Source: a virus (taxonomy: Duplodnaviria; Heunggongvirae; Uroviricota; Caudoviricetes). Taken from it: a DNA stretch of 14,169 nucleotides. Shown piece after piece: positions 10,086-13,241 of this stretch. How positions within the stretch are numbered: position 1 is the first letter of the stretch; every line of letters begins with the position of its first letter. The stretch lies in the IMG/VR virus record IMGVR_UViG_2687453466_000005. One strand, written 5' to 3'. The position numbers and the translations under genes were made by a program. Below the pieces are notes generated by a model, which ran no database searches, had not been told where the DNA came from, and saw only the letters and a program-made list of their open reading frames with translations.

Positions 10086-10157
10086 ATATGTACCTCCGGT
10101 GTACATATTACATGATTGAAATGAACCTTCAAGATACTTGTACCTTAACGGTACAAG
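10086..10157. promoter_or_regulatory. Divergent cohE/croE promoter-operator region with two GTAC-core palindromes
   Basis: ATATGTAC-N7-GTACATAT (about 10086-10108, overlapping the croE RBS) and CTTGTACC-TTAAC-GGTACAAG (about 10137-10157, 16 bp upstream of the cohE ATG); candidate -10 TTTAAT just upstream of the cohE start suggests a short or leaderless cohE mRNA. Confidence 0.45.
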
Positions 10158-10172
10158 GGTTTTAATTTCGTT

Positions 10173-10847
10173 ATGAAAACAATCCATGACATCCGGCGGT
10201 CTAACGCCAGAAAACTGAGAGATGGTGTTGGCGGGAATTCTTCCTTTGCCACTATGATTGATCGCGAGCCAACCCAGACCAGCAGGTTTATGGGAGATGG
10301 TGCTACTAAAAATATCGGTGACAGCATGGCACGACACATCGAAAAATGTTTCGACCTGCCTGTAGGATGGCTCGATCAAGAACACCAGACAACGAACATC
10401 ACAAAAAAACCTGATGTTTCAATCACTAATAAACAAATCACATTAGTCCCTGTCATATCATGGGTACAGGCCGGAGCATGGAAAGAAGTTGGATATTCTG
10501 AGGTTGATTTGAGCACAGCAGAAACGTATCCCTGCCCTGTACCCTGTGGGGAAATGACTTATATCTTGCGGGTAATAGGTGATTCAATGATTGATGAGTA
10601 CCGCCCGGGAGACATGATTTTTGTCGATCCTGAAGTACCTGCCTGCCACGGTGACGACGTTATTGCATTGATGCACGATACAGGTGAAACCACCTTCAAA
10701 AGGTTGATAGAAGATGGGACACAGCGTTATCTCAAAGCGTTAAACCCAAACTGGCCTGAGCCTTACATTAAGATCAACGGTAATTGCTCTATAATTGGTA
10801 CTGTGATTTTCTCAGGAAAACCAAGAAGATACAAAATCAAAGCCTAA
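10173..10847 (+). CDS. cohE: CI-like prophage repressor CohE (HTH N-terminus, LexA/S24 autopeptidase C-terminus)
   Basis: 224-aa ORF; contains a candidate Ala-Gly cleavage site (VQAGAW), the Ser nucleophile motif GDSM and the Lys motif FKRL typical of LexA/CI self-cleaving repressors. Confidence 0.85.
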   Translation: MKTIHDIRRSNARKLRDGVGGNSSFATMIDREPTQTSRFMGDGATKNIGDSMARHIEKCFDLPVGWLDQEHQTTNITKKPDVSITNKQITLVPVISWVQAGAWKEVGYSEVDLSTAETYPCPVPCGEMTYILRVIGDSMIDEYRPGDMIFVDPEVPACHGDDVIALMHDTGETTFKRLIEDGTQRYLKALNPNWPEPYIKINGNCSIIGTVIFSGKPRRYKIKA

Positions 10848-10861
10848 TCAATGTTTATGAA

Positions 10862-10882
10862 CCTGCTTCGGCAGGTTTTTTT
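10862..10882 (+). terminator. Rho-independent terminator after cohE
   Basis: CCTGC-TTCG-GCAGG hairpin followed by a run of seven T, 15 nt after the cohE stop. Confidence 0.7.
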
Positions 10883-10886
10883 ATAC

Positions 10887-10915
10887 TTGACAATGTACCT
10901 TTGAGATACATAATG
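10887..10915 (+). promoter_or_regulatory. Candidate sigma70 promoter for ymfJ, carrying two direct ATGTACC motifs
   Basis: TTGACA at 10887-10892, CATAAT/ATAATG about 16-17 bp downstream; the spacer and -10 contain ATGTACC twice, the same core as the cohE/croE palindromes. Confidence 0.45.
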
Positions 10916-11021
10916 TACCCAAGAGAAACAACAAACAGGCAGGACGCCCACGAAGTAGCCCGCCCGGTACGTACGAAGACCGGGATGATTCGTTAGCGGA
11001 TGATTTCAGTGGAGAGAATAG

Positions 11022-11330
11022 ATGAATGAGCAGAATTTGAAGCATGTGATCGCATTGTTGCTGGAAGACGCTAAACGTTTGCAGCAGATAGAGCCAAATG
11101 CAGGCACTGAGGCCCGCATTTTGTTAGCAAAACAGGCATTAAAGACTTGCGGGGCGCAAGCCCCTGGTCGAACCGAGTTCATGAATTTCATGGCTAACAC
11201 ACTCACCCCTCTGCCATGCAATGGAGAGAAGGTGAGCCGTGTTTATCACGACACAATGGTTAAGGCTTTAAGAATCGAGCTTGATGGGCTTAGGCGTAAG
11301 ATCGTAATGAACGAAATCGTTACCAACTAA
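11022..11330 (+). CDS. ymfJ: Uncharacterised protein YmfJ
   Basis: 102-aa ATG-initiated ORF with GGAGAG RBS; its 3' end overlaps the 3' end of convergent ymfI by about 63 nt. Confidence 0.7.
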   Translation: MNEQNLKHVIALLLEDAKRLQQIEPNAGTEARILLAKQALKTCGAQAPGRTEFMNFMANTLTPLPCNGEKVSRVYHDTMVKALRIELDGLRRKIVMNEIVTN

Positions 11331-11609
11331 GGAAGCAGACGGAAGTAAGCATGCGCTTTGTTCAAATTTACAGACAAATATATTTGCGTCAACACCGGCA
11401 CTGTTAGCAATTGAAAATGTTTGATCAAGGATTTGTTGGCAGTTCATTGTACTTTTGAGGATATATCCCTCTGGAATCAGTCTGCAGCAGCTATCGTCAG
11501 ACTCTTTAACTGTTTTCTGGTACAGAAAGTTAAGCATTAATTCTTCAAATTTTTTGGTCTGTTCGGCTGTGTCTTCAAATAGACGAACGTGAACATAAAA
11601 CTGGTTCAT
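11268..11609 (-). CDS. ymfI: Uncharacterised protein YmfI
   Basis: 113-aa product from the internal ATG (MNQFYVHVRLFED...) preceded by AAGGAAA about 7 nt upstream; the track ORF extends 15 codons further 5'. Confidence 0.65.
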   Translation of the reverse strand: MNQFYVHVRLFEDTAEQTKKFEELMLNFLYQKTVKESDDSCCRLIPEGYILKSTMNCQQILDQTFSIANSAGVDANIFVCKFEQSACLLPSASLVGNDFVHYDLTPKPIKLDS

Positions 11610-11865
11610 TAAGTTTCCTTGCTTGCTGGCTGTGTGAGAACTCCAGCATACCACCGAGCCTGAAGTGGTGAAAAGACAGGCACATAACAGCTAAGTATTT
11701 TCAACCAGAGAGAATCCTTAGCGTTGTGGTGAATGCGGCTCAGCGCACGCGGGTTAAGGTTGAGGCTGACAATCGACCTTCTGTGGATACCCACCCGCCT
11801 GGTGTGCAACCTTCGCCAGGCACCGGGGGCACCCGACACCACAACTTTATGCTGTGTGTAGTCTT

Positions 11866-12000
11866 GGCGGTACCAGTTTTTTCCTTAGTCCTTTCTGGTA
11901 CCGCCCTTTTTACAAAACAGAGAAGAGTATCCCCGGATGACGGGTTAATAACCCGACCCATCCTGATAGCTGTGGCCACAGGTGCTCTTCTCTGTTTTGT
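11866..12000. repeat. Cluster of perfect inverted repeats in the ymfI/xisE divergent intergenic region (structured RNA or protein-binding element of unknown function)
   Basis: GGCGGTACCAG-N18-CTGGTACCGCC (11866-11905) followed by CTTTTT; ACAAAACAGAGAAGAG-N57-CTCTTCTCTGTTTTGT (11912-12000) enclosing palindromes CGGGTTAaTAACCCG (11941-11955) and CTGTGGCCACAG (11970-11981). Confidence 0.6.
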
Positions 12001-12073
12001 GGAGAAACTAACCGACCGTGCAGGGTCGATATGCTGAGACTAAGCAGTTAGTGTAGTAATAAGGTGATCGCAT

Positions 12074-12319: not shown

Positions 12320-13241
12320 GAATAATGTTTCAGTCCCTAACTTATATCCGCTTTATAGTAGGAAGGTAAATAAAGTCTATTGGCGGTATAAGCATCCAGT
12401 GACAGGAAAATTCCATGCTTTGGGAACAAACGAAGCTGAAGCTATCGCTATTGCCACTGAGGCCAACACTCGCCTGGCTGAACAAAGAACCCGGCAGATT
12501 CTGGCTATCAGTGACAGGATCGCAACCAGCAAAGGAAAGGCTATCACAACGTCAACCTGGTTAGATCGCTATCAAGCGATCCAGGATGACAGGCTTAAAA
12601 GTGGTGATATAAGACTCAACACCTATAAACAAAAAGCTAAACCAGTATCCTTGCTCAGAGAACGAGCAGGAATGAAGTTGATCTCAGCCGTTGATGTCAG
12701 AGATATAGCACAATTGCTTGATGAGTATATCGCCGCTGGGCGGCCAAGAATGGCACAAGTAGTTCGCTCCGTCCTGATTGATGTTTTCAAAGAGGCGCAG
12801 CACTACGGAGAAGTACCTCCTGGCTATAACCCAGCATTAGCCACTAAACAACCAAGAAGAAAAATTACCCGACAACGGCTGAGCCTTGAAGAATGGAAAA
12901 AAATCTTCGATATCGCAGACGCTACTCATCGTTACATGGGAAATGCCATGCTGTTAGCGCTGGTTACTGGTCAGCGGTTAGGTGATATTTCGCGTATGAA
13001 ATTTAGCGATATTTGGGATGATCATCTTCATGTCATTCAGGAAAAGACCGGGAGCAAAATCGCAATTCCTCTTTCTCTTCGCCTCAATGCGATTAACTGG
13101 AGTTTACGCGATGTAGTAGCCCGCTGCCGTGACTATGCAGTCAGTGCATACTTAGTGCATTTTTTTCGTTCAACTTCACAAGCAGAGCGCGGAGCGCAGG
13201 TTAAAGCCAATACATTGACGATGAATTTTGATAAAAACTAA
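12300..13241 (+). CDS. intE: Lambda-family tyrosine integrase IntE, apparently C-terminally truncated (313 aa; ends before the box II HxxR / His / Tyr catalytic motifs)
   Basis: N-terminal and core-binding regions plus the box I Arg (LVTGQRLGD) and the Lys (QEKTGSKIAIP) are present, but the ORF stops 64 aa after that Lys; all three forward frames have stops within about 55 nt downstream. Confidence 0.75.
   Translation: MAARPRKNNVSVPNLYPLYSRKVNKVYWRYKHPVTGKFHALGTNEAEAIAIATEANTRLAEQRTRQILAISDRIATSKGKAITTSTWLDRYQAIQDDRLKSGDIRLNTYKQKAKPVSLLRERAGMKLISAVDVRDIAQLLDEYIAAGRPRMAQVVRSVLIDVFKEAQHYGEVPPGYNPALATKQPRRKITRQRLSLEEWKKIFDIADATHRYMGNAMLLALVTGQRLGDISRMKFSDIWDDHLHVIQEKTGSKIAIPLSLRLNAINWSLRDVVARCRDYAVSAYLVHFFRSTSQAERGAQVKANTLTMNFDKN

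Follow-up and report, generated by a model that had tools for sequence, protein, structure and literature searches.

The convergent ymfJ-ymfI pair of prophage e14: a mobile cassette behind an operator-bearing promoter, in an arrangement resembling N/sieB

Introduction

The small genes ymfJ and ymfI of the e14 prophage are uncharacterised genes of the most-studied bacterium. The first of them is among the most strongly SOS-induced transcripts of Escherichia coli K-12 and is often listed as LexA-regulated without explanation; what controls it, and what the oppositely oriented ymfI has to do with it, is the question that this locus raises. The question is taken up here for a viral record of 14,169 nucleotides (IMG/VR IMGVR_UViG_2687453466_000005; 'the window' below means this whole stretch, and positions given without a locus name are positions in it), which is e14, a defective lambdoid prophage of E. 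coli K-12, and is 100% identical to MG1655 over the ymfJ-ymfI region. A first-pass annotation had put ymfJ at the position held by rexAB in lambda and proposed the pair as an exclusion or toxin/antitoxin-like module.

The analysis leads to a different placing. The pair is a genuine, conserved and mobile two-gene unit, it is not rexAB-like, and it carries no toxin-antitoxin or known defence signature. Set beside characterised lambdoid phages, it fits best as a variant of the N/sieB-type arrangement. Nothing in this is categorically new; what results is a testable reinterpretation of two K-12 genes and of a cargo-exchange hot spot with a portable promoter.

Results

The genes around the pair are ordered croE (ymfT, minus strand), cohE (ymfK, plus), ymfJ (plus) and ymfI (minus), followed by 'ymfH', xisE and intE (all plus) and then lit (minus). 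In the list of open reading frames (ORFs), ymfJ occupies 11022-11330 on the plus strand and encodes 102 residues; the ymfI ORF spans 11268-11654 on the minus strand and, read from the ATG at 11609, yields the annotated protein of 113 residues (gene 11268..11609). As the first-pass annotation had described, the two genes converge and overlap at their 3' ends, sharing the 63 nt at 11268-11330, and within this dual-coding segment synonymous change is depressed in both frames. The expectation that their transcripts would be mutually antisense is borne out by an RNA-sequencing survey in which ymfI-ymfJ is one of 165 convergent overlapping transcription units of MG1655 (PMC12288877).

Upstream of the pair lies cohE (10173..10847), which encodes a repressor of the CI/LexA type with a Peptidase_S24 domain (Pfam PF00717, E = 1.5e-26). 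In lambda, the cI transcript from PRM is leaderless. The cohE mRNA is reported to be leaderless as well (PMC4681348). The divergent control region between cohE and croE contains two perfect TGTAC-N7-GTACA palindromes (10089-10105 and 10139-10155), which we read as operators of the OR type. Downstream, the cohE transcript is closed by an intrinsic terminator (10859..10885; a hairpin at 10859-10878 with an 8-bp stem, then a T run), and immediately after it comes a sigma-70 promoter on the same strand, TTGACA-16-CATAAT (10887..10914), matching 11 of 12 consensus positions and read as the PL/OL equivalent; a terminator and a promoter-like element had both been predicted here. Between the -35 and -10 elements of this promoter sits a third copy of the palindrome, TGTACCTTTGAGATACA (10894-10910), with a single mismatch. 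With up to one mismatch allowed, 0.35 occurrences of the palindrome would be expected in the 14 kb; three are present, two of them in the cohE/croE control region and the third inside the ymfJ promoter.

The same relationship recurs with different operator sequences. In four prophages with unrelated repressors, the operator words of each element's own repressor/cro region are repeated upstream of the ymfJ-like gene, as an exact 18-mer in locus L008, as an exact 18-mer plus a one-mismatch copy in L007, and with two and three mismatches in L009 and L013, respectively. The operators thus co-vary with immunity type, and the ymfJ-like gene is therefore the first behind the OL/PL of each element.

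Expression data from five independent published data sets are consistent with this placing. Late in the SOS response ymfJ goes up by 4-4.8 log2 units, with the kinetics of ymfM and intE, and its protein has been detected (PMC11002266). In the LP-600 data its rise (+4.76 log2) stands beside those of xisE (+4.56) and ymfM (+4.54; PMC10012262), and in hupAB cells it is 41-fold up, with xisE 34-fold and ymfL 48-fold (PMC2634741). Published data further show ymfJ to be the most strongly up-regulated transcript of a dam mutant, and place ymfJ, ymfH, xisE and intE together in the YmfT iModulon. The palindrome in the promoter, the use of their own operators by unrelated prophages, and the SOS co-induction with xisE, ymfL and ymfM together support ymfJ as the first gene of a CohE-repressed early-left (PL-type) operon. 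Its position is thus that of lambda N and not that of rexAB.

This distinction follows from the lambda layout. The lambda record runs cI, rexA, rexB, OL3-OL1/PL, nutL and N; rexA and rexB follow cI, precede OL/PL and share the cI transcript. Like rexA-rexB, ymfJ is an accessory gene downstream of the repressor gene and on the same strand, but unlike them it has a terminator and an operator-bearing promoter in front of it and responds to SOS induction; because rexAB come before the operators and ymfJ after them, it is N's position that ymfJ holds, and the assignment to the rexAB position is contradicted. No homology to RexA or RexB was found with Pfam, PADLOC, NCBIfam or tblastn against lambda.

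A perfect LexA-box core (CTGT-N8-ACAG) occurs just once in the window, at 11510-11525 within the coding sequence of ymfI. This copy is specific to K-12, being missing at the homologous position in nine other loci, and is for that reason probably fortuitous; LexA control through this site was accordingly set aside as a candidate. The core may nevertheless account for the listing of ymfI and ymfJ as LexA-box genes. In the early-left leaders, a motif of the form AACGTTCCGC(T/C)ACCCGGCG(A/T)TAAGGG occurs ~20-50 nt upstream of the first early-left gene in L007, L008, L010, L013, L011 and L020, and is thus common to prophages with differing first early genes and repressors; possible roles are those of a nut-like or a translational element. 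The leaders of e14 and L009 differ and contain a CCCGGT...ACCGGG hairpin.

Is the pair itself a unit, and is it inherited as one? The sequence between 10998 and 11650 behaves as a replaceable cassette, with blastn homology boundaries at 10997 and 11651. The e14-like prophages of S88 and EC4 have an identical CohE and match K-12 up to 10997 and again from 11651, with other genes between: a signal-peptide LprI-like gene with a weak LprI profile match in S88 (L005 2751-3263, minus strand), and in EC4 (L006 2783-3395) a plus-strand gene of 68 codons overlapping a minus-strand gene of the ECs1072 family. In a further E. coli prophage (L020 1994-2494) the slot is filled by the gene for a 77-residue protein, overlapping a plus-strand gene for 101 residues. 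Among loci, the N- and C-terminal modules of the plus-strand genes in this slot are shuffled. Beyond E. coli, prophages of Klebsiella, Salmonella, Enterobacter, Raoultella, Citrobacter and Scandinavium share with K-12 a segment that ends at ~11690 and whose left end, by blastn, varies with the locus (10879, 11031, 11141, 11180 or 11238).

Three parts can be distinguished in YmfJ: an N-terminal module (residues 1-42; 11022..11147), a linker of variable sequence (43-58; 11148..11195) and a C-terminal module (59-102; 11196..11330). In all 17 loci outside K-12 that carry a YmfI homologue, the C-module is found in convergent overlap with it, whatever N-terminus precedes it; the N-module is present in 13 of them, and elsewhere an N-terminus of the MEFKDLP or MESPKE type takes its place. 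The co-occurrence check called for by the first-pass annotation thus finds the pair conserved together in 17/17 other loci, and the lack of co-occurrence that it had named as speaking against its own proposal is not what prophages show. Nor was a genome with only one of the two genes present among the sampled E. coli matches; a scan of genome contigs returned only three loci. Conversely, three sequenced phages carry the N-module while lacking both the YmfJ C-module and any close YmfI homologue that could be detected (one of them, phiES15, carries a remote YmfI-family ORF described below). The N-module is widespread in the early-left operons of temperate phages, where it is joined to many different C-termini, and in Serratia phage BZS1 it stands alone as a 42-residue protein. 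The N-terminal 42 residues of YmfJ are thus an independent, widespread early-protein module.

All related loci examined retain the convergent 3' overlap, which measures 63-72 nt among close relatives, 42 nt for a ~47%-identical pair, 30 nt in phiES15 and 4 nt for the remotest homologue; it is therefore not a chance feature of one genome. In a diverged pair with 48% (YmfJ-like) and 47% (YmfI-like) identity, both the arrangement and a helix motif, RxYHxTMV..LR.E, are retained; a Salmonella Rac-like prophage carries a diverged YmfJ/YmfI pair directly before kilR, ydaE and recE. Ratios of non-synonymous to synonymous substitution (dN/dS) show purifying selection on both genes: 0.09-0.28 for the YmfI core (residues 1-91, at dS 0.5-1.4), 0.06-0.08 for the YmfJ N-module (dS ~2) and 0.16-0.52 for the part of the C-module outside the overlap (residues 59-82), with ~1.2 for the linker. 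The possibility that ymfI is a spurious ORF is rejected on the values for YmfI. The boundaries and linkage together support well the view that the ymfJ C-helix, ymfI and the ymfI promoter form one mobile cassette, which recombines into the same slot of enterobacterial prophages with different immunity regions. The slot is in effect a recombination hot spot, at which reverse-oriented cargo (YmfI, the ECs1072 family, the LprI-like protein, the 77-residue protein) is swapped between prophages.

The most conserved part of the cassette is not coding. The 78 nt upstream of the ymfI ATG are nearly invariant in all loci, including the pair with 47% protein identity, and read TTCACC-16-TGgTATGCT, a leader of ~35 nt, AAGGAA and the ATG. 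In the window this module occupies 11610..11690 on the minus strand, with a -35 element TTCACC/TTTTCA (~11674-11667), an extended -10 element TGgTATGCT (11653-11645) and the Shine-Dalgarno sequence AAGGAA. With TATACT as its -10, the same module precedes the unrelated 77-codon reverse gene of L020, a copy that a promoter scan scores as a promoter with an extended -10, and variants precede the cargo genes of S88 and EC4 (partly shared) and a remote homologue in L028. From its sequence, the module is read as a portable sigma-70 promoter and leader, predicted to serve reverse-oriented cargo. In published data ymfI is absent from the YmfT iModulon, and during SOS induction, in source data that are possibly not strand-resolved, it rises by only 1.8-2.0 log2, like lit and ymfD, against +4.8 for ymfJ (PMC11002266, PMC10012262). 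That the two genes are regulated separately is well supported.

The proteins themselves give few clues. YmfJ is modelled by AlphaFold2 as all-helical, with a hairpin at residues 3-43 (helices 3-23 and 29-43), a flexible linker of low predicted per-residue confidence (pLDDT) and a long helix at 73-101, without a compact fold (predicted template modelling score 0.28). YmfI is modelled as a small soluble alpha/beta domain of the ferredoxin-like type, its core (residues 1-~90; 11340-11609) having the order beta-alpha-beta-alpha-beta and its tail (84-113) predicted to be disordered. Among solved structures the top match to YmfI by two independent methods is GhoS, a weak one, with Cas2 proteins next; these scores lie within the general ferredoxin-like background, with identities of 10-11% and no Foldseek match at E <=1e-3. 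By sequence, YmfI gave no Pfam match to the GhoS family at E up to 1, its family profile finds none among PDB sequences, and a structure search of BFVD returned no meaningful match.

The first-pass annotation could assign neither protein a function, and profile searches leave this unchanged: Pfam, NCBIfam and PADLOC found nothing for YmfJ, YmfI, 'YmfH' or the alternative cargo, save the name-only YmfI_phage family and the weak LprI match in S88, and PHROGs matched only families of unknown function. The PADLOC result also answers in the negative the suggestion that a defence-system predictor might recognise the pair. The family of YmfI is tiny. A tblastn search of YmfI against 50,697 phage records found no match, and when 1.84 billion cluster representatives were searched with a profile, 15 matched at E <=1e-3, among them remote members of ~92 residues, one of which is reverse-oriented in an early-left operon with a 4-nt overlap. 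These remote members conserve an LPxGxY loop; no obvious catalytic residues persist among them. By reading ORFs, we found a further candidate in the UV-inducible Cronobacter phage phiES15 (NC_018454; L002 4247-4534, minus strand), an unannotated ORF of 95 codons whose product is 37% identical to the remote YmfI-family member P0158 and is linked to the family transitively through it; an hhalign comparison of the shallow YmfI alignment with this ORF was not significant. It converges on gp10, a protein with the YmfJ N-module, with an overlap of 30 nt, and is followed by a promoter-like module and an STnc100-like sequence upstream of kil.

Two identities were considered for YmfJ and rejected. The N-module sits just upstream of kil in several phages, which raised lambda CIII as a candidate; there is no sequence similarity, and in the Klebsiella loci a separate ORF of 36 codons abuts kil. 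An N-like antiterminator was likewise set aside, since YmfJ, unlike N, has no arginine-rich motif and no similarity to the lambda or P22 proteins. No nut site was identified.

What follows the pair? Positions 11693..11914 on the plus strand, within and just before the 'ymfH' ORF (11726-12037), hold an element resembling the STnc100/PasD family of small RNAs (described in bioRxiv 10.64898/2026.05.13.724894) and DicF. It contains a strong intrinsic terminator on the same strand (11866-11912; an 11-bp GC-rich stem and a U run, fold z-score -5.3), and the segment is present at ~90% identity in >2000 E. coli genomes. Rfam models for STnc100/DicF score 29 bits in e14 and 43-45 bits in related loci, where the gathering score is 47-48. 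ymfH is thus probably a small-RNA locus of the STnc100/PasD/DicF kind and not a protein gene, and the element is the next part of the early-left transcript before xisE. The order resembles that of the Qin dicB operon with DicF and of the STnc100/PasD prophage small RNAs, where a repressor-controlled early operon has small ORFs first, then a processed or terminated small RNA and then kil-type genes; unlike in those cases, the e14 DicF and STnc100 matches fall below the Rfam gathering scores.

Discussion

The closest counterparts of the e14 arrangement are lambda N/sieB, P22 gene 24/sieB-esc and Rac ydaF/sieB, which have the same order of repressor, terminator, operator-controlled early promoter, first gene and reverse gene. 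SieB is a membrane protein of ~190 residues. In lambda, N (35037-35438, minus strand of that record) converges on and abuts sieB (34482-35036, plus); the P22 record runs c2, OL/PL, nutL and gene 24, the last converging on sieB/esc, and P22 sieB has a mapped promoter and RNA start. Like sieB, ymfI is reverse-oriented, has its own predicted promoter and converges on the 3' end of the first PL gene, and both sieB-ydaF and ymfI-ymfJ appear in the published list of E. coli excludons (PMC12288877). The differences are equally clear. In sequence the e14 pair resembles none of N, gene 24, gp17 and SieB; YmfI is modelled as a small soluble alpha/beta domain, unlike membrane SieB; the e14 genes overlap by 63 nt where N and sieB abut; and, unlike sieB, neither ymfJ nor ymfI has a known exclusion phenotype.

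We therefore favour, at a probability of roughly 0.55, the reading that ymfJ is the first CohE-repressed early-left gene and ymfI a separate reverse gene in a sieB-like position, carried on a mobile cassette. Transcription would run in the order cohE, terminator, operator-bearing promoter, ymfJ, small-RNA element, xisE and intE, with ymfJ silent in the lysogen and switched on once the SOS response inactivates CohE. Transcription of ymfI would start separately, at a small conserved sigma-70 promoter with its leader, and point into the 3' end of ymfJ. Its product may be an accessory protein of the cytoplasm with a ferredoxin-like fold, whose synthesis does not depend on the lytic programme. The slot that it occupies makes YmfI a candidate for a factor of the sieB type, serving exclusion or some other benefit to the lysogen. 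Such placings, of PL type for ymfJ and in the sieB slot for ymfI, give both genes a regulatory logic.

Several observations weigh against this reading. No phenotype is known for either gene, and neither protein matched a defence, toxin or antitoxin profile in Pfam, NCBIfam or PADLOC. For ymfI, no mapped transcription start was found, the K-12 version of its promoter agrees with the consensus at only 8 of 12 positions besides having the extended -10, and its RNA rises modestly on SOS induction and does not fall (PMC11002266, PMC10012262), so that nothing in these data hints at the two genes being expressed in mutual exclusion. Where it lies outside the overlap (residues 59-82), the C-module is under only moderate selection, and the strict linkage of C-module and ymfI could be a trivial outcome of shared nucleotides. 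The cassette is also rare, occurring in 303 of 5426 complete E. coli genomes, and 286 of these 303 are at least 99% identical to K-12 and are therefore essentially the K-12 lineage.

Whether the two proteins act on one another is a separate matter. Through the cassette-linked C-helix of YmfJ and the antisense overlap, an induced prophage might modulate or neutralise its own YmfI, as Esc does SieB in P22. By that analogy, an exclusion or self-neutralising role for YmfI is plausible; functional coupling of YmfJ and YmfI we hold only tentatively, as a possibility against which the odds still lie. A further step, to a class of self-neutralised exclusion (abortive-infection) cassettes at the sieB slot, seems a long shot: YmfI would be the effector in the lysogen and the C-helix of the fused first early protein its cognate inhibitor, so that only the resident prophage could disarm it. 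If true, this would be a compact route for a prophage to escape its own exclusion factor.

The alternative that survives best, although we think it rather unlikely, is that there is no coupling: ymfI would be a stand-alone moron, and the C-terminal part of YmfJ an overprinted read-through extension, linked to it by shared nucleotides, with all activity in the N-terminal 42 residues. The N-module does occur alone (42 residues in BZS1) and with many C-termini, one and the same C-module is found behind three different N-terminal modules, the linker evolves neutrally, and only 4 nt overlap in the remotest homologue. Yet residues 59-82 lie outside the overlap and still have dN/dS of 0.16-0.52, the RxYHxTMV..LR.E motif persists in the ~48%-identical pair, where the YmfI tail does not, and the unrelated cassettes in the slot of EC4 and L020 likewise pair a small plus-strand gene with a reverse gene through a 3' overlap.

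An RNA-level device, in which antisense transcription from the reverse promoter dampens leaky or early PL expression and the protein is secondary (an excludon, compared with lambda oop and P22 sar), appears improbable. It would fit the greater conservation of the promoter/leader module than of any coding sequence, its sharing by unrelated reverse genes, the failure to find a minus-strand terminator from the ymfI stop codon to the 5' untranslated region of ymfJ, and the listing of the pair as a convergent excludon (PMC12288877). Like excludons, ymfJ and ymfI converge and have overlapping transcripts, but mutually exclusive expression is not seen in the published data, possibly not strand-resolved, in which the ymfI RNA goes up modestly when ymfJ is induced. 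ymfJ moreover attains the induction level of xisE and ymfM (PMC10012262). Purifying selection on the YmfI core is strong (dN/dS 0.09-0.28), and the family is kept, always in the same slot, down to remote members of 92 residues; the YmfI protein therefore matters.

A weak structural resemblance raises another possible role for that protein. As a GhoS/Cas2-like endoribonuclease, of the type V antitoxin or RNA-processing kind, YmfI might cut the early-left transcript or the STnc100/DicF-like RNA, beside whose element its gene lies, and GhoS leads, followed by Cas2, among the solved-structure matches by both methods. We consider this very doubtful, as the scores are those of the ferredoxin-like background, there is no sequence or Pfam signal, and no acidic or histidine catalytic residues are conserved across remote members. 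Compared with GhoS (YjdK; a type V antitoxin endoribonuclease) and Cas2, YmfI has no profile match and a different genomic context, and instead of a ghoT-like partner or any other adjacent small membrane toxin its partner is YmfJ, a soluble all-helical protein of 102 residues.

Least probable of all is the model of the first-pass annotation, in which two genes in the rexAB slot make up an exclusion or toxin-antitoxin-like module that the lysogen expresses: the pair does lie downstream of cohE, without assigned function and strictly co-occurring across prophages, but a terminator and an operator-bearing promoter separate cohE from ymfJ, ymfJ responds to SOS induction and is part of the e14 induction iModulon, rexAB precede OL/PL in lambda and the true slot is filled in some relatives by DUF3626 or DUF6414 genes, PADLOC and Pfam are blank, and the genes are convergent, not co-transcribed. 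As to its parts, the toxin-antitoxin half falls away, the blank searches (NCBIfam included) being joined by a layout that is not that of a classical toxin-antitoxin operon (convergent genes without toxin or antitoxin domains, as against type II systems), while the sieB-like slot of ymfI leaves it a candidate for exclusion.

Other features of the window

The genes that occupy the interval between repressor and early-left promoter in some relatives are a DUF3626 gene (L026/L027 941-2065, minus strand) and a DUF6414 gene (L007 6048-6851); PADLOC gave no match for DUF6414. On the early-right side of two of the e14-like prophages, adjoining Rha/Ash-type genes, L009 7744-7932 and L006 443-631 clearly match isrK (59-64 bits) and C4 antisense RNA (82-83 bits).

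Compared with the MG1655 record NZ_CP032667.1, the window is without 241 bp at 13229/13230. These comprise the 3' end of intE (including the ...GHKTQQQTDRYHDD... region) and part of the spacer before lit, with no evident flanking repeat, and the intE ORF in the window accordingly has 313 codons against 375. The segment 3483-5321 is inverted relative to the same record, consistent with the PinE-invertible tail-fibre (P) segment lying in the opposite orientation.

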